Below, piece by piece: positions 9,708 to 46,285 of a DNA stretch of 64,000 bases. The notes under the pieces were generated by a model. That model did not search any database. It was not told the DNA's origin and saw nothing but the letters and a program-made list of their open reading frames with translations. Source of the DNA: Escherichia phage GADS24. A program made the position numbers and the translations under genes. Location of the stretch: the sequence record OQ703618.1; one strand, given 5' to 3'. Every line of letters starts with the position of its first letter. The first letter of the stretch is position 1.

Positions 9708-9710
9708 ACA

Positions 9711-10205: not shown

Positions 10206-10220
10206 AATGTTTTTCCTGTT

Positions 10221-10270: not shown

Positions 10271-10271
10271 T

Positions 10272-10949: not shown

Positions 10950-10958
10950 AATTTTCTC

Positions 10959-12272
10959 TCAAATAAAATGGACGTCAAACCGACCACGAGTTGTGCCAAC
11001 ATACAATAACTGTTTAGCTAATTCTGAATCGGCATAATGGATACACGGTGTATAAACAAAGGCCGTGTCAACAGACATACCCTGGGCCTTATGGAAGGTT
11101 GATACTGGTAGTGCCTTCACCTTAGTGAACATACGTTTAGCATCCCAGAATTCGCTCCATGGAGCTTTACCACCTTTATTCCAAAATTTGTATGTTTCTG
11201 CGGTTTTAGCCAAAAACAAATTGAATTTATAAAGCTCTTCTTCAGAAGAAATAACCTTTATATCTTCGCGGATGTATTCTTCATCATCCCCATATGTTTC
11301 TACTGTAAGATTCCAGTATCGTATCATATATTCGCCTGAAACACCCCGTGCTTTAACAAATGTAGACGTTTCTACAGCATCTCGAATACGAACGAATTGT
11401 CCGTTATTGAAAAGCATTTCAGTCATATTTTTGCCATCTAACTTATATGTCTTGGTAAACGGCTCTTGTAGAACAATGACTTCATCTTTAATAAATGGCT
11501 TTTCTGTTTCGAGAAGTTTTCGGCGAATAATTGAATTTAACTTGTCTACTGACTTATTTGTGAATGCCATCATTCGATTTTCGAAAAGGTCTTCAGGAGT
11601 TTTAACGACGTTAAAATAATTCATCATATACGATTTAAGGTCTGTATATCCGTGAACACCGTGCCCATCAACTACTTTATCGTAAATCCATTTGCCATTA
11701 CGAATATCAGTCGCAACATCAATAATTGGTGCATTGCTACGTTTAACTTCTGTAAGGTTGCATTGCACGAAGTCTTTGTGTGTGAAGAAAGGACTTAGAT
11801 ACGCAGTTGATTCGCCTGGGTCTACCGGACGAATTTGGCATCGGTCGCCGATTCCAATTACTGTACACCATTTAGGGATACTAGCTAACATTATTTTAAA
11901 CAGAGAACGGTCGCACATTGACGCTTCATCAAATAACAGCACACGGCACAAGGCTAAGTCTGGAACCTTTTTCTGTTCAAATAATACGTTTTCTTCGTAT
12001 GTAGTTGGGTTGATTTTAAGAATGCTATGAATAGTCGATGCTTCTTGACCTGCGAGTTTGCTTAGAACCTTTTTAGCAGCATGTGTAGGGGCTGCTAAAA
12101 TAATACCTGATTCTCCAGAAGAAATAAGGGCTTCAACGATGAATCTAGTAAGGGTTGTTTTACCTGTACCAGCAGGCCCATTAATAGTTACGTGATGTTT
12201 CTTTTCTTTAATAGCGTTCATAACAACGTTGAAGGCGTTTTTCTGGCCTTCAGTCAAATCATCAAATGTCAT
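10959..12272 (-). CDS. dda: Dda DNA helicase (SF1)
   Basis: 437 aa; Walker A GPAGTGKTT; T4 Dda-like. Confidence 0.85.
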   Translation of the reverse strand: MTFDDLTEGQKNAFNVVMNAIKEKKHHVTINGPAGTGKTTLTRFIVEALISSGESGIILAAPTHAAKKVLSKLAGQEASTIHSILKINPTTYEENVLFEQKKVPDLALCRVLLFDEASMCDRSLFKIMLASIPKWCTVIGIGDRCQIRPVDPGESTAYLSPFFTHKDFVQCNLTEVKRSNAPIIDVATDIRNGKWIYDKVVDGHGVHGYTDLKSYMMNYFNVVKTPEDLFENRMMAFTNKSVDKLNSIIRRKLLETEKPFIKDEVIVLQEPFTKTYKLDGKNMTEMLFNNGQFVRIRDAVETSTFVKARGVSGEYMIRYWNLTVETYGDDEEYIREDIKVISSEEELYKFNLFLAKTAETYKFWNKGGKAPWSEFWDAKRMFTKVKALPVSTFHKAQGMSVDTAFVYTPCIHYADSELAKQLLYVGTTRGRFDVHFI

Positions 12273-12580
12273 CGTAAAGTCCCTGCAATCGGAATACTAA
12301 CAATACGGCCTGTGTCCAGGATTCGTTGATACAATTTTTGCGTCTCCGCATCTAGTTTAATGTGTTTCATTTCAAGCTTATTAAACCAGAACTTACGCGG
12401 AGTTTCGACCATTCTTAGAACTCCCATTTTTAAATCTGTTTTATACTGTGTTTTCAAAGTATCGAAAACTTTATCTGCAATATCCTTTCTAAAAAATACT
12501 GCAGGACGATGCTCATCAAGTGGAACCGGGACAGTAAATCCTTCCATATCTCGATAAACTATTGCATATACATAAACCAT
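12269..12580 (-). CDS. hypothetical protein (dda.1 position)
   Basis: 103-aa ORF overlapping dda start. Confidence 0.45.
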   Translation of the reverse strand: MVYVYAIVYRDMEGFTVPVPLDEHRPAVFFRKDIADKVFDTLKTQYKTDLKMGVLRMVETPRKFWFNKLEMKHIKLDAETQKLYQRILDTGRIVSIPIAGTLR

Positions 12581-12582
12581 AA

Positions 12583-13329
12583 TTAACCTTTAATCAGTTG
12601 GAATAATGATGCGCTAAGTGGTAGGCCACGTTTCAATTTTAATTTACCAATGAAACCGATCTTTTCAAAACGTTGCAGACCTTGGATAACTTTATCATAT
12701 GTATCGAAAAGCGATTCAGCGTCAGTTAATTTAGTTTTAGTTTTCCAGTCAGAGCCTTTAAGAAGAACATTGAGTTTAGTAAGTTCATGGCCTTCTGCTT
12801 GATGTGAGCCATTAATGCGTGCTTTCAAAGCAACAATTCTAAGTTTAGATTCGTTAGATAAAGGTTGATTTTTCATCATGTTCGCCATATGCTTAACACG
12901 ATTTTCACGTTTTGCTCGGATTTTTAAAATAGTACCATAAACCTTTTTAATTTGGGCCCATTTCTTCTCGTCGAGATTAAGTTTCTCTACTTTACGGGCA
13001 GAAGGATTAGCAATACGTCTTGCAACAGCGTCACGTTTCTCAATAAGTTCTTCTAATGTTAAATCAGAACGAGCCGTGTTATATTTTTTCTTAACTGGGA
13101 TAACATTACCTTTAATGTAGCCTATATCATTATTAAAACGTTCTAAGGATAATTTCTCACCTTCAACAGAGTTATTGAAAGATTCACCTGAGTAAGCGCA
13201 GACCTTTTGATCAAGAATGTTTTTAAGGTAATTAAAGTCTAAGTTAAAATCCTTAGAGCGTCTCTTCGCAGAAGCTCTAGTGTGGTCAAGACGACGATTG
13301 ATTTTGTTAATTTTATTATTTGATAACAT
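12583..13329 (-). CDS. hypothetical basic protein (possibly degenerate HNH-like or Srd-position protein)
   Basis: 248 aa; Lys/Arg rich; CAYSGESF...IGYIKGNV resembles degenerate HNH; assignment uncertain. Confidence 0.45.
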   Translation of the reverse strand: MLSNNKINKINRRLDHTRASAKRRSKDFNLDFNYLKNILDQKVCAYSGESFNNSVEGEKLSLERFNNDIGYIKGNVIPVKKKYNTARSDLTLEELIEKRDAVARRIANPSARKVEKLNLDEKKWAQIKKVYGTILKIRAKRENRVKHMANMMKNQPLSNESKLRIVALKARINGSHQAEGHELTKLNVLLKGSDWKTKTKLTDAESLFDTYDKVIQGLQRFEKIGFIGKLKLKRGLPLSASLFQLIKG

Positions 13330-13378
13330 AATATTTTCCTCTGTCTTACGGACGTTAGGTCATTTAGCTGATAGGTCT

Positions 13379-13407
13379 ATAATATCACGCCCTCAGGTAG
13401 TGTACAC
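13379..13407 (-). promoter_or_regulatory. T4-type early promoter (-35 GTGTAC, -10 TATTAT)
   Basis: Hexamers 17 bp apart followed by AGACCTATCA. Confidence 0.5.
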
Positions 13408-13481
13408 TCTTTTTTCGTAAAATGCTTTAATTTTTTATGTGTTATAATGGTTCTGAGTTCCATCCGGTTATTCCAATCCAG

Positions 13482-14090
13482 TCAGTAACTGACAATAGAC
13501 AGATTCCAGATTGTATAACGTCCATCTTGAATAATAGAATCTACACGCAGTGTAGTCCCTATAGGGAGCATAAATTCACATTCGTCAGATATAAGTCTAG
13601 CATTAGACCGTCTTGTCGCTTCAGGGAAAGCTCCATTGAACTCGCAAGATGGTGCAGCCAGAATCATATTAAGCATATGTTCACGGAAGTTGAAAGCAAA
13701 TGGTGCATCTTTGATGCAGAACATATTAAATGTTCCATAAAAATTATATGAAGCGAAGTTACGTGCTACACCAAACACCGGACTAAAGCTCATTACTCTA
13801 TCAAATTTAATAATACTACCAACGCCTTTATCGTCGAGTGTGGCCATAGTTTTCTTAGAGATTCCACGATACATTGTCTCAGGAACTGAAGAAGACCAAT
13901 TTCTACGAACGATTGAACTTAACTCCTGTTGAATACAGTCTGGCTTGTTTTCCATACACTGCCAAAGGATGCTTTGTTCATTATCGTTGAATTGACTATC
14001 AATTTCGTACTGCAATACATCTTGATATTCGGGGTTTTGAGCACGACGAACCATTTCTTCAATTTCACACTCGTTATACGGCATAAACAT
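13482..14090 (-). CDS. ADP-ribosyltransferase, ModB-like
   Basis: 202 aa; R (YRG), S-x-S (FSP) and E-x-E (ECE) motifs; tandem with paralog; T4 modA/modB synteny. Confidence 0.55.
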   Translation of the reverse strand: MFMPYNECEIEEMVRRAQNPEYQDVLQYEIDSQFNDNEQSILWQCMENKPDCIQQELSSIVRRNWSSSVPETMYRGISKKTMATLDDKGVGSIIKFDRVMSFSPVFGVARNFASYNFYGTFNMFCIKDAPFAFNFREHMLNMILAAPSCEFNGAFPEATRRSNARLISDECEFMLPIGTTLRVDSIIQDGRYTIWNLSIVSY

Positions 14091-14118
14091 TTTGGTTTCT
14101 CCTCTGGTTGATAGGACT

Positions 14119-14147
14119 ATAGTATCATCGTCCTTGTTGTTTGTACA
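14119..14147 (-). promoter_or_regulatory. T4-type early promoter (-35 TGTACA, -10 TACTAT)
   Basis: Hexamers 17 bp apart. Confidence 0.5.
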
Positions 14148-14729
14148 CTAAAAATTCAACATTTTTAAATGAATGATTTTGTATAACCGAGATAAAGGGT
14201 CATATTCTAAGTCTTCAATTTCCACAATCTCAAATCTAGAGATACCTGAGACCATGTACTCTTGTTCAGATTCAATCATATCTAGGACGTCAACACGTGT
14301 TTCTTCCATAACATGCTTAGGGTTCTTTCCGGCAAGTACAATGTTAACCATGTTTTGGTAGTAATCAAAAACGAATGGAGCATTCCTGAGACTAAGAATA
14401 GTGTACGTCTGGTATTCCCAACTCCCGGAGAATTGACGAGCTGTACTGAAATCAGTTGTGAACGATGTTACTCGTCCAGGAGACCAATGGCATCCAACAG
14501 AAAGAAGTGAAAGACGTTCTACTTCTTCTGGAGTTACACCACGGTAGAGTTCTACTGGTACTGTAGAAGTCATATGCTTACGAACAAGATGGTCTAATTC
14601 ATAGTGGAAATCCGGGTCTTCCTTAGAATCGGTGCAAGCCCAGAGAATGTTTTGTTCTTGGCGGGTGAATTTGCTATCAATCAGATTTGTTAGGTATTCA
14701 CGTTCTTGAAGTTCAGATTGACATGTCAT
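14148..14729 (-). CDS. ADP-ribosyltransferase, ModA-like
   Basis: 193 aa; LYRG and acidic catalytic motif; paralog of 13482..14090. Confidence 0.55.
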   Translation of the reverse strand: MTCQSELQEREYLTNLIDSKFTRQEQNILWACTDSKEDPDFHYELDHLVRKHMTSTVPVELYRGVTPEEVERLSLLSVGCHWSPGRVTSFTTDFSTARQFSGSWEYQTYTILSLRNAPFVFDYYQNMVNIVLAGKNPKHVMEETRVDVLDMIESEQEYMVSGISRFEIVEIEDLEYDPLSRLYKIIHLKMLNF

Positions 14730-16593: not shown

Positions 16594-17115
16594 TCAGTAA
16601 CCATTATCCTGGCGTTCAAAGTTGTGTTGGTTTTTCAAGTAGTAAAGTTTAAAGATTTCTTCAGCGGAAAGACCCAGACCTTGGAACATATTCAGAACAA
16701 AGTGGAGAATATCAATCATCTCAAATTTAATTTCAAGCTGGTCTTCAGGAGACAGTTCATCGATACGACGATTTCGATATTCAGCATGTTGTGCTTTCCA
16801 TGGCTTCCATACAGAGCTAGCGGCTTTTTCACCATTGCTCATACCACCGAGTGAAGTCAGCAGTTCACGGAATTCATCATCAATATAATCTTTCTGATTA
16901 CGCAGCCAATCAACAACATCACCGGCAGTGGCCAATTCATCAGGATGTTTGTTATGTTCAGGCTTGTCATTTGCCAGACGAACCTGTAAAGATTTCTGCA
17001 TATCAAGCATTACCTGAAGTGGGTCTTTATCTTCGTGAATCAGAGCATTAAAATAAGCTTCTTCTGCTTTATCAACACCAGAAATAAGTTGTGAACATTC
17101 ATTAAAGTGCGCCAT
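16594..17115 (-). CDS. 56: dCTP pyrophosphatase gp56 (MazG-like)
   Basis: Start MAHFNECSQ; strong similarity to T4 gp56. Confidence 0.85.
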   Translation of the reverse strand: MAHFNECSQLISGVDKAEEAYFNALIHEDKDPLQVMLDMQKSLQVRLANDKPEHNKHPDELATAGDVVDWLRNQKDYIDDEFRELLTSLGGMSNGEKAASSVWKPWKAQHAEYRNRRIDELSPEDQLEIKFEMIDILHFVLNMFQGLGLSAEEIFKLYYLKNQHNFERQDNGY

Positions 17116-20154: not shown

Positions 20155-20403
20155 TTATTCTTTTTCGCGAATAATAATTACTTGTTGAGGCTGCTGAGCA
20201 GATTTCTTTTCGGCAACGATAGACCAAATTAAAGTTCCAATCCAACCAACCATCGTCCAGTTAAAGAGTAAAGATACAAAGAAGATTGCTGTTGTGCTTT
20301 TTGTGCCACGAATAAGTGCGATTACCCAAGGCAACATGTAAATGATGATTGAACCAATACCTGCGATTAAAACCGCTACTGAACTAGCTACGAATAATTC
20401 CAT
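20155..20403 (-). CDS. small integral membrane protein
   Basis: 82 aa, two hydrophobic helices. Confidence 0.45.
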   Translation of the reverse strand: MELFVASSVAVLIAGIGSIIIYMLPWVIALIRGTKSTTAIFFVSLLFNWTMVGWIGTLIWSIVAEKKSAQQPQQVIIIREKE

Positions 20404-23583: not shown

Positions 23584-23925
23584 TTAAAAGAATTTAAATT
23601 TTTTCTTGGTCCGTTCATTAAAAGCTTGTTGTACTTGCATTGTAACACATTTTTCAACATGTGGTGCAAGTTCTGCTTTTCTGTCCTGGTCAAGAACTGC
23701 AAAGTCCATTACGATTTTACCATCAACCCAGTCTAGTTTTGTAATATAGACTATATGATGAGAACCATCTTCAAGCGTAATCAGAATCTCTTGAATGACA
23801 TTTTCCATTGCTGAACGGACGATTTTAAGAGATTCATTAAACACTCGTTCTTTGCGAATGTCTTCCCCTTCCGAAGAAGGGGATTCATCAACGATTTCTA
23901 GATTTAAATCATCGAGATTATTCAT
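23584..23925 (-). CDS. hypothetical protein at gp40 position
   Basis: Between gp41 and uvsX; synteny only. Confidence 0.45.
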   Translation of the reverse strand: MNNLDDLNLEIVDESPSSEGEDIRKERVFNESLKIVRSAMENVIQEILITLEDGSHHIVYITKLDWVDGKIVMDFAVLDQDRKAELAPHVEKCVTMQVQQAFNERTKKKFKFF

Positions 23926-25090
23926 CGAAATCTTCCATTTCGTCAAGGTCGTTTTCTATATCTGCTGCAGAAGGAGCATCAGAAGTTTTAACCGGAACTT
24001 TAGTTGTTGCTTTGCAATTAATAAGGTCATTAACAGCGTCATCAACTTCTTTAATAGAAGAGATAGCACCTAGTTTATATTTAGTTTCAATTGCATCTCG
24101 GAAAGGTTTGTGTTTAAACAATGGTCCCCAGAATTCTACACAATCAGTAGCTTTAGCACGCCATGATTTTTCTTCACGAATCATTTCACCTGTTTCTTCG
24201 TCAAGGAATTCACGAGCATACCAACCAGCTTTAGGCTTAACCACAAAACCGATTTCAGTTGCCATTTCTAACAAGCCGCTGAATGGGTCAATACCGCCAT
24301 CAAAATTAACCGTGATTGGGAAAGTAGATTTCTCTTTAACTGTACGAGATTTTTCTGCTTTCAACGTGAAGTCATAACCGGTCAATTCTGTACCTTCTTT
24401 AACCTGACGTTTAGAGATAAAGAATACAGTGTTAGCAGAGTAAAGAATACCTGTACCACCACCCATAATCTCTTTAGGATATAGACCGCCGATTTCCATT
24501 GCTGTATGGTTGATTGCAACACACGGAATATCTTTAATAGTCAGATAAGGAGTCACAATGCGGAACAGAGATTTAAGTGCCTTAGCACGAGACATATCAC
24601 CTACAACTTTCTCGTTCAACGCATCTTCGGTTTCTTTCTTAGATGCAGTATTACCGATTGAATCGATAAAGATAATAACTTTATCGCCGCGTTCAATCGC
24701 GTCAAGCTGATTAGTCATATCAACTTTAAGTTGTTCTACAGATTGAATCGGAGTATGAACTACACGGTCCAAATCAACACCCATTGAACGGAAGTAAGAT
24801 TCTGAAGCACCGAATTCTGAGTCATAAAACAAACAGATTGCATCTTTATATTTCTTCATATATGCTGCAACCATGGTCAGTCCAAACAACGTTTTAAAGT
24901 GTTTAGAAGGAGCAGCAAAAATAGTTAAGCCTGATTGCAACCCAGCATTCAGTGCACCACCTAATGCAATATTCAACATCGGAATACGAGTAGGGACTTC
25001 ATCACGATTATTAAACAGCTTAGACTTAGTCAAGTCTGCAGTCATTTTAGAAGTAGAAGCTTTAATCAGACGAGATTTTAAATCAGACAT
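23918..25090 (-). CDS. uvsX: UvsX recombinase (RecA-like)
   Basis: 390 aa; RecA-fold P-loop; T4 UvsX-like. Confidence 0.9.
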   Translation of the reverse strand: MSDLKSRLIKASTSKMTADLTKSKLFNNRDEVPTRIPMLNIALGGALNAGLQSGLTIFAAPSKHFKTLFGLTMVAAYMKKYKDAICLFYDSEFGASESYFRSMGVDLDRVVHTPIQSVEQLKVDMTNQLDAIERGDKVIIFIDSIGNTASKKETEDALNEKVVGDMSRAKALKSLFRIVTPYLTIKDIPCVAINHTAMEIGGLYPKEIMGGGTGILYSANTVFFISKRQVKEGTELTGYDFTLKAEKSRTVKEKSTFPITVNFDGGIDPFSGLLEMATEIGFVVKPKAGWYAREFLDEETGEMIREEKSWRAKATDCVEFWGPLFKHKPFRDAIETKYKLGAISSIKEVDDAVNDLINCKATTKVPVKTSDAPSAADIENDLDEMEDFDE

Positions 25091-25182
25091 TGTATTTTTC
25101 CATAGGCATCATTATATTTTACTCATGTTTAAAAGATAAGACGATTATATACTAAGGGTTATACAGCGTTTAAAACTTTAAA

Positions 25183-25200
25183 CAGGCTCTTAACGAGCCC
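25183..25200 (-). terminator. weak hairpin terminator after kinase gene
   Basis: Stem ggctc/gagcc followed by T-rich tract on minus. Confidence 0.3.
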
Positions 25201-25738
25201 ATTTGATAATTTCTGTAATCAAATTATTACGTTCGCTTGCATTAAATCCTATAACTTTGTTAGCACCATCATGATTAAGTAATTGATATGTTTGGATTTT
25301 GTTATGAATTGCAAACTCTTCAAAATGTGAAATGACTGTATTAAAACCGAATGAAGACAAAGTAATAAGGTCGTCTTCAAAACTTTCAGTCATTTCGTTA
25401 CGTGTTAAAATAATTGTGAACACATCATGGTTTTGGCAAAGACGAACATAATCCTGTTCATAAACATCAAGAACCGAGTCCGCATCTTGTCGAATACGTC
25501 CATAAACCCAGTTACTAATATATCCACGGTCTAACAGATAAATCTTAGTAGGGTCTAAATAATTCAACATCGTTTCGAAACAGCCAACTTCATTTCGAGA
25601 CTTAACATCAAAACGTCCATCAACTGTTCGTTTAGGGAAATCAATTTTTACATATCTTTCACTAATTTCCATTATGTCATTAATGAAAGTTGTTTTACCA
25701 GCATTATCCGGGCCATCTACTAAAATAATTTTAGCCAT
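25190..25738 (-). CDS. P-loop nucleoside/nucleotide kinase-like protein
   Basis: 182 aa; Walker A GPDNAGKTT; LLDRGY lid-like motif. Confidence 0.55.
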   Translation of the reverse strand: MAKIILVDGPDNAGKTTFINDIMEISERYVKIDFPKRTVDGRFDVKSRNEVGCFETMLNYLDPTKIYLLDRGYISNWVYGRIRQDADSVLDVYEQDYVRLCQNHDVFTIILTRNEMTESFEDDLITLSSFGFNTVISHFEEFAIHNKIQTYQLLNHDGANKVIGFNASERNNLITEIIKWAR

Positions 25739-25739
25739 T

Positions 25740-26639
25740 TTATTCCTCGATTACGACATCTTCGTATTTAGGTATATTATACGGTGAAGAAATTAAAGCA
25801 TTAAAGTAGATGAACTCGCCAAGACCTGGATGGAATACTTCTTCAGGATTTTCGAAATATTGAATCTTCGGCCGTCCTTTAAGAATTTGATAGTACTCAG
25901 TTTTAGTTGGTTTAAAAATTCGAATCAGCGCTTCTTCAGGATACTTATTTCTATCGAAGCTATTATTTGGATCGGTTACATAAAGCGGTTGACCTAATTG
26001 AATTGCACATTCAACCACTTGTTCAAAACGATAGCACGGGTCACTAATTCGAAATGGATGAAAAATACCATCTAGATGAATAGGAGCCAAATCACCTACA
26101 AAACGCTGCATGATGGAAGGACGTATAACTTTCTGGGTTACGATAATCTTATTACCATCTGCACCAGCGTTAACCAGCACTTCCTTTTGACGTTCATTCA
26201 ACACAGTAGTTTGAAGTGAACGATTAACCGACAACATGTCGGTTTTTAAGAATTCGTCAATATAAAAACGTGGTTTATTAGGGTCTGCAGTGATATTGAA
26301 ATTGAATTCTACATCAAAAGCTCCGTCATATCCAGTGATATCTGTTATTAGAAAATCACAATCATAATAAGCAATTAATGAATCAACCACAAATTCATTT
26401 TCAGACCAGAAATATTTACGAGTGTTATACGCGTTATCTTTATACCATAACGGAACAAACTTAAATTCTGGGAAAAGACGTTCACATTCTTTAATATCAG
26501 ATGCATTACGTGGATATGTAATAACATCACCCGGATTAGCACGGTGCAAATGAAGTTGGAAGTTGCCATCCTTAAGGATAGCATACTCTCCAGTTTCATA
26601 AGACCGCATACTCAAGATAGGTACGCGGAAAATAGCCAT
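25740..26639 (-). CDS. putative glycosyltransferase (GT-B-like) at the T4 beta-gt locus
   Basis: 299 aa; C-terminal FEQVVECAIQLGQPLYVTD resembles GT-B donor-binding motif; position uvsX-42. Confidence 0.45.
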   Translation of the reverse strand: MAIFRVPILSMRSYETGEYAILKDGNFQLHLHRANPGDVITYPRNASDIKECERLFPEFKFVPLWYKDNAYNTRKYFWSENEFVVDSLIAYYDCDFLITDITGYDGAFDVEFNFNITADPNKPRFYIDEFLKTDMLSVNRSLQTTVLNERQKEVLVNAGADGNKIIVTQKVIRPSIMQRFVGDLAPIHLDGIFHPFRISDPCYRFEQVVECAIQLGQPLYVTDPNNSFDRNKYPEEALIRIFKPTKTEYYQILKGRPKIQYFENPEEVFHPGLGEFIYFNALISSPYNIPKYEDVVIEE

Positions 26640-27355
26640 TAGTCAAGGAATCCTTTAACATAATCAAAATCACGTTCAAACACATGGGCACTTACCATGG
26701 TATGAGTATAATCACCAACTTCTACACCACATTCGTTAGCGATATAATGAAGTAATTTTCCTTGGAGATAAAAATCCAACTGCATAACAACAGCACAGTT
26801 CTGAGAACGCATATGGCAGTGGGTATAAAGCTTACCATCACGAATATAATAAGTCACTGAGTCAGTACATGGATATTCAAGCGTTTCGTCCGAATCAAGC
26901 AAAGCCTGATCAGAACTTTCTAGAATTTGGAACACAACTCTTCGAGAGTTAGGTTTCTCTTTAAGTTCTTTGAGAAGAGCTGGTAACTGGGCCGCAATTC
27001 GTGGACCATAGAAAGTGTTGAAGTTTGCAGGCAAAGCATCTGATTTCGGTTTAGAAATAAATTTAGCAACGTTAGGATATGCCTTAAATGCTTCTTCTGC
27101 ATCAGTTCCGCCAGAAATCATAAATTTCCAGAAATCTTCGGCATATTCATAAGAGATGCGGTTAATACGTGGGTCGGTCATTTTGAATGATGATGGAGTG
27201 TCAACAACTACTGTCATAGACCCAATTTCATTACAACGTCCAATACGAGAATCAGTTACGAATTCCGGGTTTTCTAAAATCTCACGATTGACTGCTTTAA
27301 ATGCGGATTGAAAATCTGCGGCTTTAATATATTTCATTGTGTTATGTTTTCCCAT
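26639..27355 (-). CDS. 42: dCMP hydroxymethylase gp42 (thymidylate synthase fold)
   Basis: 238 aa; NSRR...YPCTDSV...HMRSQN motifs parallel T4 gp42. Confidence 0.8.
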   Translation of the reverse strand: MGKHNTMKYIKAADFQSAFKAVNREILENPEFVTDSRIGRCNEIGSMTVVVDTPSSFKMTDPRINRISYEYAEDFWKFMISGGTDAEEAFKAYPNVAKFISKPKSDALPANFNTFYGPRIAAQLPALLKELKEKPNSRRVVFQILESSDQALLDSDETLEYPCTDSVTYYIRDGKLYTHCHMRSQNCAVVMQLDFYLQGKLLHYIANECGVEVGDYTHTMVSAHVFERDFDYVKGFLD

Positions 27356-27396
27356 GTTTACCTCAATACAGTTATTATATACTCAATTCATAAAGC

Positions 27397-27636
27397 TTAT
27401 TTGAATTTCTTAGCGATGTTGATATAACGTAGAGCTTCGGCATCGATACTTCTAAGGACACTATGAAGGAATGCGTCGGCATAGTATTCTAGTTGAACAG
27501 GTTCTTTAATCGCTTTAGCCGCTTTAGTTTCAAACAGGCCCATAAGGGCCTTTTTAAGAATTTGTTCGTTGCTGGTAATTTTAATAGTCAAAATCTCTTC
27601 ATTAAGTTGGTGGTTAAAAGTTTTTCTAGAAATCAT
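27397..27636 (-). CDS. hypothetical protein
   Basis: 79-aa ORF. Confidence 0.4.
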   Translation of the reverse strand: MISRKTFNHQLNEEILTIKITSNEQILKKALMGLFETKAAKAIKEPVQLEYYADAFLHSVLRSIDAEALRYINIAKKFK

Positions 27637-28793
27637 TCCGGGTACCTCAAAGCGTCGTCAGAGTTAGTTATATCAATAATAGATATAGAATTTTCTGATA
27701 ACCCATTTTTAGATAACTGACGTTTATAATATCTTTCACAATATGTACACGTCGTCCCGCAGATTTCATTAGCACAATCGAAATCTGGATGTCTGAACCA
27801 CCTTTTTTCTAAAAAGCCGTCTAACAAAGAGGTTTCAATATTTACCGTATGTGAAAACTCGGTCTCATTTTCAAGAGTGAAAATGGTCTCTAAAGGCTTC
27901 CACAGTTCTAACAAATTACCTTCAAACTTTTCAGAAGCGTATGCTTCAAGAACTTTCAAAATGTAGTCTGTGCTACCTGTACGTCCTGAAACTTTGAATT
28001 GAGTGATACCAATATCATTATAAAGTTTCAAATCTTGTGGACGAACAAAACGAGTTCTCAACCAGTTAAATGGGTCTGTATCACGAGCTTTAATACAGTG
28101 CTGCATAGGATATCCATTTAAGGATTTAGCATCATCAGCTGTAACATCAGTACTATGGAAAATATAGCAAGAGTCACGATAGCTACAATGTGTTGTATAC
28201 CCTTTACCAGCATTAGAACAGAACTCATTTACAAGAACTTCAAATATTATATTGTTCTTATTGCAAAACTCTGCTGCACGCTTCAGGAAAGAAACTGAAC
28301 GGTTCTTATGAATTCCACAGCAGACCTTTTTGATATTATACTGGTCATGTAAGTATTTGATTTGAGTTACAGCATCGACATGTAAAATTGTTGAAACTTC
28401 AATCTCAATGTCTTTATTGACTTCACGAACAATTTCCATAACAACAGGGTTAGCGATAGTAATACGCCATACGCCTATTGACCAAAGATACTGAACATAA
28501 TCCTGAATAGCTTTCTTCTTCCACTCAACTAGTTCTCTTTTTGAACCGGGATTTATCGTGTTGAGTGTATAGTTAAAGCAAATACCTAATTCGTTACAAC
28601 GTTTAACGTAATCTTCTAACATCTTTTTGTCAACGTCAGGAAGCCTAAAATCAGGTCTGGCTGCTACAAAAGCCATTTCTCTTGTAGAGCCGTATACTTC
28701 GTTTATCAAGCTATTAGGATAAGTTTTATTGAGCTCTACGATTTTATCAAGAAGAGCTAAATCAAAATTCGTTCCGATTTTAAAAGTATTCAT
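27633..28793 (-). CDS. Cys-rich hypothetical enzyme in modification cluster
   Basis: ~386 aa from ATG preceded by A9 tract; multiple Cys clusters (CCGIH, CANEICGTTCTYCE). Confidence 0.5.
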   Translation of the reverse strand: MNTFKIGTNFDLALLDKIVELNKTYPNSLINEVYGSTREMAFVAARPDFRLPDVDKKMLEDYVKRCNELGICFNYTLNTINPGSKRELVEWKKKAIQDYVQYLWSIGVWRITIANPVVMEIVREVNKDIEIEVSTILHVDAVTQIKYLHDQYNIKKVCCGIHKNRSVSFLKRAAEFCNKNNIIFEVLVNEFCSNAGKGYTTHCSYRDSCYIFHSTDVTADDAKSLNGYPMQHCIKARDTDPFNWLRTRFVRPQDLKLYNDIGITQFKVSGRTGSTDYILKVLEAYASEKFEGNLLELWKPLETIFTLENETEFSHTVNIETSLLDGFLEKRWFRHPDFDCANEICGTTCTYCERYYKRQLSKNGLSENSISIIDITNSDDALRYPE

Positions 28794-28852
28794 TTTTTTT
28801 TTGCATCTCACGTTAATTGACGCGATGGTTTTTGCAGGTCTTACTTAAATTA

Positions 28853-29239
28853 TTATAGATTCGGTTTATATGATTTAAATGTTTCGAATTCGCCTTTATT
28901 CATAAGAGCTTTGAATTCGTCGGGACGCATAGCTTTGTCGTCGATAATCCAATCATATACTGGTTTATGTGTTAGCAAATTATGGTACTTCAAGCCAATG
29001 TTTGCCAAGTTCTGAATAAGACTTGGGAGAATGTCAATTGCTATACGACCAGGACCTACTGACTTCATACCGCGAGCAGTGTAAAGCGTTATGGTATGCC
29101 CTGCATCATACAGGGCATTAATGGCAGACACCATTTCGACGTCTGGTTTGAAGTTCACGTAATCACGATTGTTATTCCACTCTGTTATACAATCATCGAC
29201 ATCAAAACAAAGATTAAGCATGTTTTCTACACGGTGCAT
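28853..29239 (-). CDS. HAD-like phosphatase (small)
   Basis: FDVDDC motif (DxD) near N-terminus; start overlaps upstream stop (TAATG). Confidence 0.45.
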   Translation of the reverse strand: MHRVENMLNLCFDVDDCITEWNNNRDYVNFKPDVEMVSAINALYDAGHTITLYTARGMKSVGPGRIAIDILPSLIQNLANIGLKYHNLLTHKPVYDWIIDDKAMRPDEFKALMNKGEFETFKSYKPNL

Positions 29240-30924
29240 TAGATTCGTTCCCATTGATGAGTGATATCGCCACCGATTGGACGATAGGAAACACCAGTTT
29301 CTTTATCAGTTAGTACCCATTTACCAGGATTTTTTGTAATCAGAGTAGCCGTTACAGGTTCTGCCATGTCATAACTAATAGAGCCGTCCTGAAGTACACG
29401 GCCCATGTTACGTAATTGCTTAGTCAGAAGTTCCATACCTTTATAATATGCGGCTACCGCTTTAAGTGGATTATTCTTGAAATAACCACCTAATGCAATC
29501 CAGATAATTGCTACAGCCAAATGATGATACTCGTTAAATGAACTCATCTTTCCATATTTGTAAACTAATGGATTGATGTTAATAGTCACATTACAAGTTG
29601 TTTCATCAATAGTAAACTGTCCCCAGGTCGGATTAGCGTTGAATTCATCATAACCTGAAACAGCATAAAGCACTTTAGCTTCATCGTACAATTTTGGCCC
29701 GTAAATCTTGGTTTCGCCAAAATATCCACGAGGGTCGATAAACTTGACTTCGCCGTTATCAGTAATCATAGTATTACTGAAGTTCGGGTCACCGTGAATA
29801 ACAGAGTACTGTCCCTGAGAACGGTTATGATAACGAATAAGGTGTTCTAAAGCTTGTTTCAGCATTGGCTTCAGACGCCCAATCTTAGTGTAGTTCACAT
29901 GTGTGATTTTACCAAATGAATCAATCAATGGTTGAATACTTTCACAACGATCAATAACTTTCGTATAGAATTCTTTAGTGAAATCACGACGAACAGTTTC
30001 AGGACTTACAAAATAAGTGTCTGTGCTGAATTTCAGTGCATCTAAAATTGCATCAACAATTTGTGGACGAGCAAGACTCGATTTAGATTTAATATATTCA
30101 AATGCCGGCTTACCTTTAATGCGTTCCATTTCAAAGTTATTTTCATTAACAGAAACTAACTGAGGAACTGAATCTGATTTCACTTTAAGATACCATGAAA
30201 TCTCATCTTTCTGAAGAGCTCGTCCCTGTTCGGTTAATGCGAATTTAGTTACAGTTTCTTCACCAATTTCAACTGCATTAAAACTACGATTAAGTTCACG
30301 AACTTCATGAGCTTTTTCAAGTTTAGGCATATCACCTAAATCAATTAGATTCATAAGCTCTGATTTATTGAATGCGCCGCTGTAAAGGAATTCTACGAAA
30401 TCACGTCCTTTGCAGTATTCATGAATTTCCTCATCAGTAGAACCCATATAGAATTCCCAGTCTTTGAATTGATAAATTCCTACAACATTACCACCTGTTG
30501 AACCTACGTTAGTGATATTTTCACCGTCGAAATTATATCGACATTCGTCACCCTTAACATAGATTGCGTTAACATTCCAAGACCATGAACCAAAATCAGG
30601 AATAATATCACACCAGTTAACAATTACATTATGGCCGTCTAAATCTTTGTGTAATTTAGCAAGAGCATAAGCGGAACCATATGCTTCATCAACTGTACGA
30701 ATAGTCACATTGAACCCTTCTTGCTCACAATAAGCTCGAACAGTTTCAGCAAATTTTGAATGAACTACTACAATAATTTCATCTGCGCCAAGGTCAGAAT
30801 AAATTGTATACAAATTGCTCAGAATAGTGTCTTGTTTATAGTTAACAAGCACCTTAGGAATATGATGCGTTATTGGATACAAACGAGTTGCCAGTCCAGC
30901 ACCAAGAATAACAGCTTTTTTCAT
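29239..30924 (-). CDS. bifunctional sugar-1-phosphate nucleotidyltransferase / APH-like sugar kinase
   Basis: N-term GAGLATRLYPITHHIPKVL (G-x-G-T-R NTase); C-term HGDPNFSN and IDPRG (Brenner kinase motifs). Confidence 0.7.
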   Translation of the reverse strand: MKKAVILGAGLATRLYPITHHIPKVLVNYKQDTILSNLYTIYSDLGADEIIVVVHSKFAETVRAYCEQEGFNVTIRTVDEAYGSAYALAKLHKDLDGHNVIVNWCDIIPDFGSWSWNVNAIYVKGDECRYNFDGENITNVGSTGGNVVGIYQFKDWEFYMGSTDEEIHEYCKGRDFVEFLYSGAFNKSELMNLIDLGDMPKLEKAHEVRELNRSFNAVEIGEETVTKFALTEQGRALQKDEISWYLKVKSDSVPQLVSVNENNFEMERIKGKPAFEYIKSKSSLARPQIVDAILDALKFSTDTYFVSPETVRRDFTKEFYTKVIDRCESIQPLIDSFGKITHVNYTKIGRLKPMLKQALEHLIRYHNRSQGQYSVIHGDPNFSNTMITDNGEVKFIDPRGYFGETKIYGPKLYDEAKVLYAVSGYDEFNANPTWGQFTIDETTCNVTININPLVYKYGKMSSFNEYHHLAVAIIWIALGGYFKNNPLKAVAAYYKGMELLTKQLRNMGRVLQDGSISYDMAEPVTATLITKNPGKWVLTDKETGVSYRPIGGDITHQWERI

Positions 30925-30952
30925 GTTGTGGTCCTCATTGGTAAGTAGGAGT

Positions 30953-30977
30953 ATTGTACACTATTCTAGTTAAAGCA
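30953..30977 (-). promoter_or_regulatory. T4-type middle promoter (MotA box TGCTTTA, 12-bp spacer, -10 TACAAT)
   Basis: Minus-strand motif ~30 nt upstream of NTase-kinase ATG. Confidence 0.45.
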
Positions 30978-31099
30978 TTCATACTTTGCTTGTAGTCCAA
31001 TCATAATCCATCCAATTACAAGTGTTGGAATCATTACTGGAGCCGTTAAGCTCCAGTAGATAGTCATGACAAGCATCAATAGTAAAAGTCCTATTGTTA
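30956..31099 (-). CDS. small hydrophobic protein (47 aa)
   Basis: Hand-translated MKAITIGLLLLMLVMTIYW...; overlaps middle promoter. Confidence 0.25.
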
Positions 31100-31105
31100 T
31101 TGCTT

Positions 31106-31741
31106 TCATTGTTCGCCTCGTAACATGGCACCTAGTGCACCACCAGGGTGGAACTTAAGGAAGTCATTAGAGGTAAATCCACGTTCAGACGAAAGGTTGA
31201 TAGCGAACGTATCGATAAGCGCTAACAACAATGTAGTAGACATTGTCGGAGCTAAAGAGTTCTCGTCAACTTCTACCGCGATGCCTGTACAGAAAGAGTA
31301 ATCAAAAAGGGCTTCATTTTCTTGCGGAATGTCAGGGTTACAATGTAACAGAATCTGTTTAACCTGAGGACGAATCATACGAAGATGTTTAGCAACACCT
31401 ATCATTTCTTCGGTTTTACCAGAACGACTAATATGAATCAACACATCATTAGGCGCAATGAATCCTGCATCACCGTGAGAATAATGCCCAGTGTTCAAGT
31501 ACATACTCGGGATACCGAGTGAAGCAAATGTCTCAGAAGCTTTAGTTGCAATATTAGCATTCTTACCAACACCTGTAATAATTACTCGGCTTTCATAATT
31601 ACTAAGTCCTGGGCGTCGAAGAGTTTCTAGAATAGCATTATAACGAGCAGGGTTTTGACTAATTACTTTGGCCATAGTAGCCAAAGAAGAAGCTTGTTTT
31701 ACGATTGCGTCAATAGCGATAGTAATAGGAGTAGTTTTCAT
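31106..31741 (-). CDS. SIS-domain sugar phosphate isomerase (KdsD/GutQ-type arabinose-5-phosphate isomerase-like, no CBS domains)
   Basis: 211 aa; GVGKNANIATKASETFASLGIPS...HGD...ISRSGKTEE matches SIS signature. Confidence 0.7.
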   Translation of the reverse strand: MKTTPITIAIDAIVKQASSLATMAKVISQNPARYNAILETLRRPGLSNYESRVIITGVGKNANIATKASETFASLGIPSMYLNTGHYSHGDAGFIAPNDVLIHISRSGKTEEMIGVAKHLRMIRPQVKQILLHCNPDIPQENEALFDYSFCTGIAVEVDENSLAPTMSTTLLLALIDTFAINLSSERGFTSNDFLKFHPGGALGAMLRGEQ

Positions 31742-31781
31742 ATTTCTCTCATTTAATTAGTTTACCGTCCATGGTATTATA

Positions 31782-34493
31782 TCAAAAATCGAACATATCG
31801 AACAGAGATGCTTTCTTCTCGTAATCGAGTTTCGCCGCTGATGTGAATCCTTCAAGTGGTTTAATAAATGTCTTCTCAAGGAGAACAGTGTAGTCCATCC
31901 AATGAAGTACGTCGTCTTTAATTAAATCTGTGATTTCAGTACCAGAAGGCCATGCGATACATTTATCACCGAATGGGTTTCCTTCACGTAAAGGCAGAAC
32001 ATATACTTTTTCACCTTCTACAACTTGCGGTGCATCGATATTACCTTTGATAGCTCTGTTATATGTCAGAATTCCACGAATATGGAACGGACATTTAGGA
32101 CCAGGGAATCCACCAACGTCATATTTAGCAATGTTATTCGCAGAAGATACCGACGCGATGCTAATATAATTCAATTGACGGAATTCTTTTTCAAACTCTT
32201 TAAAATATTCTTGTAATGATTCTTCACCTTCTTGAAGCATACGGCGAATACATTCTTTAAGAGCTTTCTGTACTGCTTTAGGGGTCGAAGATTTCTGAGT
32301 CTCTAGACCCATGATTTTGAGTTTAGGCTCAGCGTAACGAGTACCTTCCATATCCCACACGTTTAATGCATAACGTTTCTTACCAGTCCAGAATCCACCA
32401 ATACCTTTAGAACCGAGTGGAGGACCAGCGATAGCTTCTCGGTCCATGAACATTAAGTGTTGTTTATTGTTCATGTATTCACACATTTCACGGAAACCTC
32501 TATCAATAGCTGGTTCCATACGTTCACGTGCAAACTTATCTAAGAAGTCTACCCAATGGTTGGTATCACGGAATTTAGATTCACCAACCTTATCAATAAT
32601 TTTATCAGCAGATACGTAAATAGAGTCTGTATCACCATAAAGAACGAAAGCTTCACCTTCTGTGCCACAAACTTCATTCAGATATTCATTAACTTTACGT
32701 TCAATCCACTGTAAAGCCATTTGCCCGAATGTTGTGATTGCAGTAGCATTACGCAAATCATAATAACGGAACCAAACGTTGCCAAGTGCACCATAAAGTG
32801 AGTTGATAAGCAATTTACGGTTAATTTGGGCAGTCATACCTGCAACTTCAGTACGTTGAGCTCTAAACAACATTTCATTAAGAGATTTAGCAGACAACTT
32901 TTTAATCTTTTCTTTAATCTCATCACTGAAGTCGAAACGATAATCAACATCTAACGGTTCGTCAACAGAAAGATTAGGATTATGCAATGCCTCTTTAATT
33001 ATTTCACCGTTACGTTGAGCCGCAAGCATATAACCTTTATGTTCTTTACGTTGATTAAAGACTTTAGTGATTTCAGTTGGAACAACACCGTCACGGTCTT
33101 TATAATACATCATGCCGTTAGGAGAACAACTGTACACATCAGAAGGTCGTTCAGCAACAGCGTTAATATAATCATGCAATGGAGCTACTTTAAACGTTCC
33201 TGCTATTGTTTCTGGGCTAATATTCACTTGGCGAATAATACTTGGATACAGAGATGTGAGGTCGAAGCTCATCACATATTTGTATCGATTTGGAATAGGT
33301 TCCTTAACAAAAGCGCCAGGATAAGGTTGAACCGGATGAGAACGACCTTGTGGAATCACCTTGTTCTGCTCTTTAAGGCTATTAAAAATAATAGCATCCC
33401 ATGTTTTAATAGGGCTAAACACAGATTGAATCTGTATCTTAGCATAATAACCCATGTCCAAGCTCAAGTTAATGAACTGACGTTTACCATCAATTTGCAA
33501 TACACGATACACGTCGATAATGTTATAAGAAATATATCGTTGGTGATTGCTTTCACGAAGCTTAGAAATAGGGCCGTCATATTTCAGTTTACCAACGTTC
33601 AATTCAAATTCTGAAATGTAATCCAGAGAATACGACGGTTGATTAGTAAAAGAGAATTTTTTGTAAAGGTCAATGTAATCAAGAACAGAGATACCGAACA
33701 ATGTAATGATTTCACGAGAACCATACATGTTTTCGATAACTTTAACACGTGTTTTACGATGCGGTGATAAACGTTTCGCAGTAGATTCGCCAAAAATATT
33801 CTTGATTCGGTTATACACATATGGAATATCAAATGACTCAACGTTCCATCCAGTCAAAATGACAGGAGTTTTCTGTTGCCAGAAGTTGAGATATTCCATC
33901 AACAATTCTTTTTCATTATCGAACGGCATATAAACGATTTTGTCGATAATTTCGGATGGAACTTCATCACCACCTTGTTCTTGAAGCTTAGCAGCAATTT
34001 CGATAGACCATTCTTCCACATTACCATATGGAGAATTCAAAAGGTCAAATACGTAGAACCTGTCGTCAATTGAGTCATAATGGGTGATAGCATCAATTGG
34101 ATGTTTTGCTTGTGACGGCTCAGGGAACCCGTCTGGAGATGTTACTTCGATGTCGAAGTTAGCCACACGAATTTTTGTATGGTCGTATTTGATTTCATAG
34201 TTATAAGTGTCAGACAAATACGCCAATTTGAAATCGTCCATGCCAAGTGCTTCAAGTCCGATATCTTCCATGCGTTTAATCCATTGGGAGGCATCACGCA
34301 TATTGGCGAACAACTTACGAGTACACGGCTTACCGTAGATATCGAAATATTTCGTAGCCTGACTTTCCGGACAATGAGCAAACAGTGATGGTTTATATTC
34401 TACTTCACGAGTACGTTCACGGCCATTAGAATCGATGTAACGTTCAAAAATTGAATCACCAATCTGTTCAACCGTTAAGTAAAATTCTTTCAT
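31782..34493 (-). CDS. 43: DNA polymerase gp43 (family B, RB69-type, 903 aa)
   Basis: Exo motifs FDIEV, YGDTDS polymerase motif; recognised as RB69-like gp43. Confidence 0.95.
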   Translation of the reverse strand: MKEFYLTVEQIGDSIFERYIDSNGRERTREVEYKPSLFAHCPESQATKYFDIYGKPCTRKLFANMRDASQWIKRMEDIGLEALGMDDFKLAYLSDTYNYEIKYDHTKIRVANFDIEVTSPDGFPEPSQAKHPIDAITHYDSIDDRFYVFDLLNSPYGNVEEWSIEIAAKLQEQGGDEVPSEIIDKIVYMPFDNEKELLMEYLNFWQQKTPVILTGWNVESFDIPYVYNRIKNIFGESTAKRLSPHRKTRVKVIENMYGSREIITLFGISVLDYIDLYKKFSFTNQPSYSLDYISEFELNVGKLKYDGPISKLRESNHQRYISYNIIDVYRVLQIDGKRQFINLSLDMGYYAKIQIQSVFSPIKTWDAIIFNSLKEQNKVIPQGRSHPVQPYPGAFVKEPIPNRYKYVMSFDLTSLYPSIIRQVNISPETIAGTFKVAPLHDYINAVAERPSDVYSCSPNGMMYYKDRDGVVPTEITKVFNQRKEHKGYMLAAQRNGEIIKEALHNPNLSVDEPLDVDYRFDFSDEIKEKIKKLSAKSLNEMLFRAQRTEVAGMTAQINRKLLINSLYGALGNVWFRYYDLRNATAITTFGQMALQWIERKVNEYLNEVCGTEGEAFVLYGDTDSIYVSADKIIDKVGESKFRDTNHWVDFLDKFARERMEPAIDRGFREMCEYMNNKQHLMFMDREAIAGPPLGSKGIGGFWTGKKRYALNVWDMEGTRYAEPKLKIMGLETQKSSTPKAVQKALKECIRRMLQEGEESLQEYFKEFEKEFRQLNYISIASVSSANNIAKYDVGGFPGPKCPFHIRGILTYNRAIKGNIDAPQVVEGEKVYVLPLREGNPFGDKCIAWPSGTEITDLIKDDVLHWMDYTVLLEKTFIKPLEGFTSAAKLDYEKKASLFDMFDF

Positions 34494-45814: not shown

Positions 45815-46285
45815 TTAATCATGTTTCCACACCCCATCGGTATTTGACCAAAGTCGCTGATTATCTGATCCTCGCCACAGTTTTTTGGTCGGAAGATTTT
45901 TCTCATACTTCCCATCAATAATAACATCAACATATTTAAGCATTTCTAGTTGTTTAATATCTTCAAATTTATATCCTGTCCACAACCAAATGCTTTTATT
46001 GGGATAAAGATTTTTTACTGTTTGAACAATGCAATGAATAACATCTCGGTTATCAGGATAGAGAGGGTCTCCTCCAGTTATAGTCAATCCTTCTATATAA
46101 TCATTATTCAAACATTCAATTAATTGTTCCAGTGTTTCACCAGTGAATGGAACGCCATTTCTAGCGTTCCATGTTGATTTATTATAACACCCTTCGCATT
46201 TATGCAAACAACCTGTAACGAAAAGAACGACCCTGCATCCAGGGCCATTCACAAAATCGCAAGGATAAAATCTATCATAATTCAT
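45815..46285 (-). CDS. nrdG: anaerobic RNR activating protein NrdG (radical SAM)
   Basis: 156 aa; CLHKCEGC cluster. Confidence 0.85.
   Translation of the reverse strand: MNYDRFYPCDFVNGPGCRVVLFVTGCLHKCEGCYNKSTWNARNGVPFTGETLEQLIECLNNDYIEGLTITGGDPLYPDNRDVIHCIVQTVKNLYPNKSIWLWTGYKFEDIKQLEMLKYVDVIIDGKYEKNLPTKKLWRGSDNQRLWSNTDGVWKHD

Follow-up and report, generated by a model that had tools for sequence, protein, structure and literature searches.

Escherichia phage GADS24 (sequence record OQ703618.1) was analyzed over a stretch of 64,000 nucleotides, referred to here as the window, in which nine minus-strand open reading frames (ORFs) at 25190-31741 are packed between uvsX (23918-25090) and gp43, the DNA polymerase gene (31782-34493). 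Judged by sequence, this region is very probably a Mosigvirus cluster of the RB69/HY126/Bas46 type that replaces cytosine in the DNA with mono- and di-arabinofuranosyl-5-hydroxycytosine, a replacement by which RB69-like coliphages escape the nucleases of their hosts. The arabinosyl-5-hydroxycytosine system is already published (in 2018 and by three groups in 2025-26); with its chemistry, its enzymes and several crystal structures described between 2018 and 2026, meeting it again in raw sequence is a rediscovery that matters little as a finding from the window. The part worth following concerns a single gene of the cluster, which encodes a cysteine-rich protein of the peptidase-U32 family (here U32). 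Tentatively, and with the balance slightly against it, U32 may be an Fe-S enzyme that provides a second, O2-independent and prephenate-dependent route to 5-hydroxy-deoxycytidine monophosphate (5-hydroxy-dCMP).

Gene content and relatives of the uvsX-gp43 interval

The junctions between the nine ORFs measure -26 to +54 nucleotides. By position, all on the minus strand, the ORFs encode a P-loop protein of 182 amino acids (25190-25738; ortholog of RB69 gp45); a GT-B glycosyltransferase (GT) of 299 amino acids (25740-26639; ortholog of RB69 gp46:47), proposed as the first, base-proximal arabinosyltransferase; a thymidylate-synthase (TS) homolog of 238 amino acids (26639-27355), the predicted flavin- and O2-dependent 5-hydroxy-dCMP synthase; a product of 79 amino acids (27397-27636; ortholog of RB69 ORF049c); U32, a cysteine-rich, Fe-S-type protein of 392 amino acids (27633-28811; ortholog of RB69 gp50); a HAD-type phosphatase of 133 amino acids (28853-29254; ortholog of AfhF and RB69 gp51); a bifunctional nucleotidyltransferase/kinase of 561 amino acids (29239-30924; ortholog of AfhE and RB69 gp52:53); a small product of about 47 to 50 amino acids (30979-31131; the RB69 ORF054c slot); and a SIS-domain, KdsD/GutQ-like D-arabinose-5-phosphate isomerase of 211 amino acids (31106-31741; ortholog of RB69 gp55). 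Two further minus-strand genes of the pathway lie elsewhere in the window: that of a proposed second arabinosyltransferase (3807-4907; ortholog of RB69 gp3/ORF003c), between rIIA and gene 39, and that of the gp56 dCTPase (16597-17115), which is 97% identical to RB69 gp56. A preliminary description of this DNA, made from the letters alone, had reported the dCTPase as well as a module of kinase, GT-B, TS-family, Cys-rich, HAD, fused and SIS genes between uvsX and gp43, and every one of these ORFs was found where it had been placed.

The 6.5-kb cluster is 97 to 98% identical across 151 phage records, all of them Mosigvirus-like, and because so long a region is kept at this identity in so many records, its ORFs are not due to chance. 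Within the phage collection, JN02 gave the top match at the nucleotide level (98.4%). Nucleotide identity to RB69 and Bas46, which have the same gene order, is 97.5% and 97.3%, respectively, and the cluster proteins are 98 to 100% identical to their counterparts in these two phages. Such identities place the window with the RB69-type Mosigviruses, as the preliminary description had supposed. The 299- and 561-amino-acid proteins are each encoded by a single intact ORF here, while the RB69 GenBank record splits both (ORF046/047 and ORF052/053); the intact ORFs are in line with published opinion that sequencing errors account for the RB69 splits.

The T4 glucosyltransferases had been described as replaced, and the interval between genes 47 and 55 as holding small ORFs only. 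Both statements held. Neither alpha-gt nor beta-gt of T4 gave a tblastn match in the 64-kb window at an E value of ≤0.01, and RB69 has likewise been reported to be without a homolog of either (Thomas et al. 2018). In the window the interval runs from the end of gp47 at 41134 to the start of gp55 at 42125, and the matching RB69 interval is annotated with the small ORFs a-gt.2 to a-gt.5 only.

Evidence for 5-hydroxycytosine as the modified base

Arabinose was first described in RB69 DNA under the name arabinosyl-5-hydroxymethylcytosine (ara-hmC), with ORF53_52c, ORF055c and ORF003c implicated in its formation (Thomas et al. 2018). Liquid chromatography-mass spectrometry (LC-MS) and nuclear magnetic resonance (NMR) of RB69 DNA have since identified mono- and di-arabinofuranose ether-linked straight to C5, which makes the base 5-hydroxycytosine (Lee et al., NAR 2026, PMC13326640), and an independent paper terms the earlier hmC assignment erroneous. 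Arabinosyl-5-hydroxy-dC has been demonstrated in virion DNA of RB69, NP and Bas46/47, and published chemistry and enzymology cover RB69, DLP3 and HY126. The RB69 TS homolog, gp48, yields 5-hydroxy-dCMP in vivo, takes up 18O from 18O2 and copurifies with flavin mononucleotide (FMN) (PMC13326640).

The TS homolog of the window matches PF00303 (E value, 2.4e-15) and is identical at 236 of 238 positions to PDB entries 9IQC and 9IR2 (9IQC E value, 1.8e-162), while its identity to T4 gp42 is 24.8 to 28%. A MAFFT alignment with Escherichia coli ThyA, the reference sequence of which was checked against the K-12 genome, gave E143/C146/N169/D177 for the window protein and D143/C146/D169/D177 for T4 gp42. 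The full signature relative to ThyA is thus present: the catalytic C146, L143E, N177D (dCMP preference) and D169N, the residue diagnostic for 5-hydroxy-dCMP synthases (PMC13326640). By these residues and its near-identity to characterized enzymes, the protein is assigned as a flavin- and O2-dependent 5-hydroxy-dCMP synthase and not a hydroxymethylase; D169N together with the 99% identity to 9IQC points to arabinofuranosyl-5-hydroxycytosine as the DNA base.

In the preliminary description the same gene was called gp42, a dCMP hydroxymethylase, and hmC was taken as the acceptor base. That a gp42-type enzyme gives hmC DNA, which is then arabinosylated with a pentose that is dephosphorylated and later re-phosphorylated at C1, is very improbable. 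The name ara-hmC goes back to the detection of arabinose in hydrolyzed RB69 DNA, and the TS gene is labeled a dCMP hydroxymethylase in many GenBank records; the ether on C5 of 5-hydroxycytosine, the 18O incorporated by the FMN-binding orthologous enzyme, and the N169 and low gp42 identity of the window protein all stand against hmC. Of the arabinosyl-hmC that the preliminary description mentioned for RB69-type phages, the arabinose survives and the hmC falls with the revised 2018 assignment.

Predicted supply and transfer of arabinose

The set of enzymes for supply of UDP-arabinofuranose is complete as judged from profile and PDB matches. The SIS protein matches KpsF/GutQ (E value, 4.6e-32) and KdsD (1.2e-30) profiles and PDB entries 3ETN (3.3e-25) and 2XHZ (7.5e-19). 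Within the 561-amino-acid protein an NTP_transferase match covers N-terminal residues 3 to 99 (8.4e-10), the sugar-1-phosphate nucleotidyltransferase part as a whole spans residues 3 to 109, fructosamine/APH/EcKL kinase matches lie at residues 308 to 409, and there are NCBIfam sugar-1-phosphate nucleotidylyltransferase matches and a match to PDB 1JYK (2e-05). The HAD protein matches TIGR01689, a capsule biosynthesis phosphatase family (4.3e-13), and PDB 9IQW from phage HY126 (7.8e-88). The profile searches that the preliminary description had named as a check returned a sugar isomerase, a sugar-1-phosphate nucleotidyltransferase/kinase and a HAD phosphatase. Its proposals that the sugar is not supplied by the host as a nucleotide sugar, that arabinose comes from ribulose-5-phosphate through the SIS isomerase, and that the fused protein is a kinase and nucleotidyltransferase and the HAD protein a sugar phosphatase are all borne out.

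According to the summary of the HY126 work (He et al. 2026) in PMC13326640, AfhE phosphorylates arabinose-5-phosphate to the 1,5-bisphosphate, the HAD phosphatase AfhF then takes off the 5-phosphate, and AfhE last forms UDP-arabinofuranose. From near-identity to the HY126 proteins we infer the same steps for the window. Dephosphorylation before anomeric phosphorylation, as in the preliminary description and in the hmC alternative, would reverse the order so reported. What weighs against our reading of the cluster is that it rests on near-identity to studied phages and not on DNA chemistry, that the kinase-then-phosphatase order is known second-hand through PMC13326640, and that Table 1 of that same paper keeps the older order, with dephosphorylation first, which also lends the hmC alternative a point in its favor.

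Both GT-B proteins are proposed to be DNA arabinosyltransferases. The product of 3807-4907 is 98.9% identical to RB69 gp3, for which published work had already put forward this role, and matches PDB 9IQZ/9IR0, entitled "phage HY126 glycosyltransferase" (E value, 3.6e-250). The 299-amino-acid protein has a GT-B fold and gave no sequence-family match in profile searches. A transferase had been expected inside the cluster; the 299-amino-acid protein fits this, and the second arabinosyltransferase lies outside.

Put together, gp56 would remove dCTP to give dCMP, which the TS homolog would hydroxylate at C5 with flavin and O2, as demonstrated for the RB69 and HY126 enzymes, which are 99% identical to it. 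A deoxynucleoside monophosphate (dNMP) kinase and host NDP kinase would carry the product to 5-hydroxy-dCTP for incorporation by the polymerase. In parallel, the SIS isomerase would convert ribulose-5-phosphate to arabinose-5-phosphate, the kinase domain of the 561-amino-acid protein would form arabinofuranose-1,5-bisphosphate, the HAD phosphatase would remove its 5-phosphate to leave arabinose-1-phosphate, and the nucleotidyltransferase domain would join this with UTP to give UDP-arabinofuranose. The proposed role of the 299-amino-acid enzyme is to add the first arabinose to the 5-hydroxyl, and that of the gp3 homolog to add the second.

Family, fold and cysteines of U32

The preliminary description had noted a Cys-rich enzyme of 390 amino acids and given it no role; the protein is present and belongs to the peptidase-U32 family (PF01136; 42.2 bits against a cutoff of 22.4; E value, 7.7e-11; residues 100 to 292). 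Its true start is likely the ATG at 28793, giving 386 amino acids. An AlphaFold2 model (pLDDT, 92.7) had as its best Foldseek match in the PDB 5D88, the U32 protein Mk0906 (E value, 3.6e-7; TM score on target, 0.68), the remaining matches being generic TIM barrels. Kinship to the E. coli paralogs is visible by profile methods only: hhalign of 61 phage-clade sequences against a UbiU/UbiV/TrhP/RlhA profile gave a probability of 96.5% (E value, 8e-10; 209 columns), pairwise BLAST against RlhA, TrhP and UbiU was insignificant (E values, 0.05 to 0.6), and phmmer against the PDB returned no match.

Nine cysteines are invariant in 121 U32 homologs: C164, C198, C209, C215, C239 and a C-terminal C346-x4-C-x3-C-x2-C358. 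Of these, C209, C215 and C239 align with the UbiU cluster ligands C169, C176 and C232, and C164 or C198 could stand in for the fourth Fe-S ligand. The characterized U32 proteins are RlhA (ho5C2501 in 23S rRNA), TrhP (ho5U34 in tRNA) and UbiU/UbiV (anaerobic ubiquinone hydroxylation). They are Fe-S dependent and O2 independent, and all need prephenate, which is the proven oxygen donor in ubiquinone hydroxylation.

Distribution and gene context of U32

The U32 gene was found in 221 phage records, all at ≥80% identity, and the host names seen were Enterobacterales or Shewanella. The TS homolog is present in 377 records, among them those of 57 Acinetobacter and 22 Rhizobium phages. No U32 gene was seen in phage records from either of these two genera, and in Acinetobacter phage Mokit the arabinose cluster is complete, with neither U32 nor chorismate mutase. 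Acinetobacter and Rhizobium are obligate aerobes, whereas the Enterobacterales and Shewanella are facultative anaerobes.

An AroQ chorismate mutase (CM_2, 38.5 and 39.5 bits; cutoff, 27) is encoded between U32 and the TS homolog in Klebsiella phages KLB31 and PWKp16. Using tblastn, phage chorismate mutase was found in 48 phage records, where by flank annotations it adjoins the TS homolog, and U32 wherever U32 is named. The hosts of these records are Klebsiella, Yersinia, Serratia (including phage LC53), Enterobacter, Edwardsiella, Erwinia, Pectobacterium, Providencia, Morganella, Kosakonia and E. coli (EcS1). Adjacency of U32 and chorismate mutase is kept in three gene orders: U32-chorismate mutase-TS; kinase-U32-chorismate mutase-recA, as in Shewanella phage Thanatos-2 (CM_2, 32.8 bits); and chorismate mutase-U32-TS, as in the metagenomic T4-like contig L020. 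Adjoining AroQ genes are at 6179-6418 in L006, 4777-5022 in L007, 8134-8391 in L016 and 3469-3732 in L020. No discussion of phage AroQ chorismate mutases was found in the accessible literature.

In the window, the slot that holds chorismate mutase in other genera (48 related records) is filled by the 79-amino-acid ORF. Considered as a diverged chorismate mutase, this ORF had no CM_2 (PF01817) match at an E value of ≤10, an hhalign probability of 0.6% and no tblastn match, and the idea was dropped. Its family is confined to Mosigvirus, with many shortened variants of 47 to 58 amino acids and a version of 40 amino acids in HY126, and its appearance is that of a gene replaced or in decay. It is also the faster-evolving sequence, at 81 to 100% identity against 98 to 100% in its neighbors. 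Elsewhere, tblastn matches of chorismate mutase at 12613-12803 (E values, 0.1 to 0.6) were treated as noise; they fall inside a 248-amino-acid ORF (12583-13329, minus strand) with no significant Pfam match, which looked like a mobile-endonuclease gene.

The U32 clade (50 to 56% identity) also reaches uncultured, non-T4-like phages with a DnaE-type (pol III alpha) polymerase. No TS homolog was present in the fetched flanks (4 to 10 kb on each side) of U32 in nine such contigs, and in six of the nine (L009, L017, L018, L019, L027 and L028) a homolog of the 299-amino-acid GT lies directly upstream of U32 and overlaps it. Near U32 in the DnaE-type contigs are genes for a P-loop kinase, gp56-like dUTPase_2/MazG, dCMP deaminase and UDG-like proteins. 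In L009 (an 80-kb contig), the GT homolog, SIS protein, nucleotidyltransferase/kinase, U32, a DAHP synthase and an epimerase are encoded in a row at 6939-11891, again without a TS homolog. The DAHP synthase, with which the shikimate pathway begins, is directly downstream of U32; as a SIS gene is nearby, KDO8P synthase was considered for this DAHP_synth_1 protein and rejected (237 bits for DAHP synthase and 63 for KDO8P synthase). L009 is a second link of phage U32 to the shikimate/prephenate pathway. In L017 (a 61-kb contig; 5777-14179), U32 is flanked by the GT homolog, dUTPase/DCD, Gly_transf_sug and UDP-galactopyranose mutase genes, and a gene for a TET-associated-type DNA glycosyltransferase (PF20691; 33.9 bits) overlaps the U32 stop codon, an arrangement that points to some other glycan on a hydroxyl that U32 would make. 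Four contigs, L008 (1314-3454), L018 (5980-8008), L019 (5972-7996) and L029 (681-2839), share a radical-SAM/SPASM gene a short way upstream of the GT-like one; U32 follows this pair directly in L018 and L019, and a polymerase gene intervenes in L008 and L029.

The reverse arrangement is found in the large metagenomic contigs L021 and L022, in which the same GT and kinase families occur with a TS(N169) homolog and without U32. From the U32-only and TS-only contexts it follows that the transferase-kinase pair can work with one or the other of two hydroxylase modules, and T4-like enterobacterial phages carry both. A Flavodoxin_2/NAD(P)H oxidoreductase gene directly precedes that of TS(N169) in L022 (together at 7739-9004) and lies about 6 kb upstream of it in L021 (978-1523, with TS(N169) at 7304-8344). 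The oxidoreductase is a plausible flavin reductase partner of the TS-type hydroxylase; the window has none of this kind.

A possible second route to 5-hydroxy-dCMP

We propose, as a possibility that falls a little short of even, that U32 is the first prephenate-dependent U32 hydroxylase of a DNA precursor (dCMP or another pyrimidine dNMP). RB69-like phages would then have two routes to the modified base, the chorismate mutase of related phages would feed the second, and U32, paired with the base-proximal GT family, would be the sole hydroxylase in the uncultured pol III phages. The enzyme would take oxygen from host-made prephenate, through an Fe-S-mediated oxidation, to give 5-hydroxy-dCMP. 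Its substrate is presumably a mononucleotide because the dCTPase should keep unmodified cytosine out of the DNA, and the phage, which lacks its own chorismate mutase, would rely on host PheA/TyrA for prephenate. Such a route would allow replication in the gut under anoxia, a condition in which the O2-dependent TS homolog cannot work. The window also holds the anaerobic ribonucleotide reductase gene nrdG (45818-46285, minus strand) with nrdD adjoining, and the phage is thus equipped for anaerobic DNA synthesis.

Several observations weigh against this proposal. The fourth UbiU ligand, C193, falls in a segment missing from the phage clade, and the phage cysteine spacing is C-x5-C where the canonical one is C-x6-C. 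In vitro hydroxylation has been reported for no U32 protein to date, and the published label of this one, derived from fold matches, is "sugar or heterocycle reductase" (PMC13326640). The correlation of U32 with host lifestyle reflects few independent lineages, 12 of the 221 U32 records are in name categories not itemized, and in E. coli Dhakaviruses such as VR5 the arabinose cluster comes without U32. A cluster-member look-up of the metagenomic U32 clade returned no habitat. Finally, no chorismate mutase was detected in the window by CM_2, by hhalign or by tblastn of three phage chorismate mutases.

The main rival is that U32 is an Fe-S redox helper, serving as reductase for the flavin of the TS homolog or for a sugar or heterocycle intermediate, which we consider unlikely. 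The published reductase label favors it, nine invariant cysteines including the C-terminal CX4CX3CX2C would suit electron transfer, and the pairing of the TS homolog elsewhere with a flavodoxin-like NAD(P)H oxidoreductase makes a reductase partner plausible; yet the TS homolog works without U32 in E. coli and Acinetobacter phages, in nine contigs members of the U32 clade have no TS homolog in the fetched flanks, and the steady adjacency to chorismate mutase or DAHP synthase is left unexplained. Less probable still is hydroxylation of RNA (tRNA ho5U34 or rRNA ho5C) to tune phage translation, with the position in the cluster incidental. All characterized pyrimidine-directed U32 proteins do act on RNA, but U32 is without the long C-terminal extensions of RlhA (653 amino acids) and TrhP (453 amino acids), the host already has both enzymes, and across unrelated phages the gene sits amid dCTPase-like, kinase, DNA polymerase and DNA-glycosyltransferase genes and overlaps the GT homolog. 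A collagenase-like peptidase, as suggested by the name of the Pfam family and by "peptidase" and "collagenase" annotations in GenBank, can be dismissed almost entirely, as the characterized members of the family are hydroxylation factors and not proteases and the invariant cysteines and nucleotide-metabolism neighborhood are unlike those of a protease.

If the prephenate-dependent hydroxylase is real, it would explain how gut coliphages that destroy dCTP can replicate without oxygen and would account for the puzzling chorismate mutases of phages. The U32 field, in which no member can at present be assayed in vitro, would gain a small-molecule substrate with an easy LC-MS readout, and glycosyl-5-hydroxy-pyrimidine DNA would extend to a large group of uncultured phages without a TS-type hydroxylase. 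No link of U32 or prephenate to 5-hydroxy-dCMP was found in the searchable literature, which excludes He et al. 2026 and Mahler et al. 2025. Overall, the preliminary description was partly right, in that its core idea of arabinose was good and its hmC/gp42 reading is superseded.

The P-loop kinase and other features of the region

The P-loop protein is 98% identical to its RB69 and Bas46 counterparts and has a Walker-A region with weak dTMP-kinase matches (E value, 0.004); its published Foldseek match is to thymidylate kinases (PMC13326640). Homologs of the kinase lie beside the GT homolog in distant phages (31% identity in L017 and 28 to 30% in L021 and L022). Kinase and base-proximal GT-B are thus a conserved pair of neighbors even in very distant phages (28 to 31% and 26 to 38% identity, respectively), the pair being located at 25190-26639 in the window, 6495-8032 in L017, 9001-10682 in L021 and 9001-10594 in L022. 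Because RB69 already possesses a dNMP kinase of the gp1 type to which 5-hydroxy-dCMP is acceptable, this pairing may hint at a dedicated role for the P-loop kinase, possibly at the nucleotide level.

The small ORF at 30979-31131 is 94 to 96% conserved in Bas46 and RB69, and family profile searches with it gave no match. In KLB31, its slot holds an ORF of 47 amino acids with a transmembrane note. The imm gene is at 20158-20403 (minus strand), upstream of gene 41, while T4 imm sits between genes 42 and 43, a slot that in this phage is the place of the arabinose genes. A promoter and terminator scan of 24800-32000 gave no excess over shuffled sequences (22 versus 26.4 and 3 versus 4.0, respectively) and is uninformative for T4-type promoters.

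Comparison with known systems

The pathway of RB69, HY126 (Afh), Bas46/47, Serratia phage LC53 and Acinetobacter phage DLP3 has the same genes in the same order, with 97 to 99% protein identity, and essentially no difference from that of the window was found. DLP3 has a third GT and is without U32, whereas the window has U32 and no third GT; mono- and di-arabinose, and not tri-arabinose as in DLP3, would therefore be expected.

Glucosylation of hmC in T4 (gp56, gp42, gp1, alpha-gt and beta-gt) follows the same logic from the same genomic slot. In both, a dCTPase is joined by a TS-family enzyme that acts on dCMP, the modified dNTP is built into the DNA, and GT-B enzymes act on a hydroxyl handle. 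This handle would be a phenol-like 5-OH derived from flavin and O2 in the window but is a folate-derived CH2OH in T4, and the sugar donor would be phage-made UDP-arabinofuranose instead of host UDP-glucose. Two marks of the T4 system, a gp42 ortholog with D169 and a homolog of alpha-gt or beta-gt, are absent from the 64-kb window. With the GmhB-type heptose route and MurU/AmgK-type salvage, the window shares an anomeric kinase, a HAD phosphatase for the distal phosphate and a nucleotidyltransferase; it differs in that the substrate is a pentofuranose and in that kinase and nucleotidyltransferase are fused in one protein of 561 amino acids.

Phage U32 has the Pfam family and TIM-barrel core of RlhA, TrhP and UbiU/UbiV, with three of the four Fe-S ligand positions aligned, but departs from the E. 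coli paralogs in its altered cysteine spacing, deleted segment and extra invariant CX4CX3CX2C. Hydroxylation of a pyrimidine at C5, as by RlhA and TrhP, is proposed for it, and in related phages its gene is linked to one for prephenate supply; the presumed substrate is a free deoxynucleotide, unlike the RNA or quinone of the E. coli proteins. As judged from gene content, the TS homolog and U32 would parallel the known pairs of O2-dependent and O2-independent enzymes, namely TrhO/TrhP, UbiI,H,F/UbiU,V and the phage NrdAB/NrdDG.

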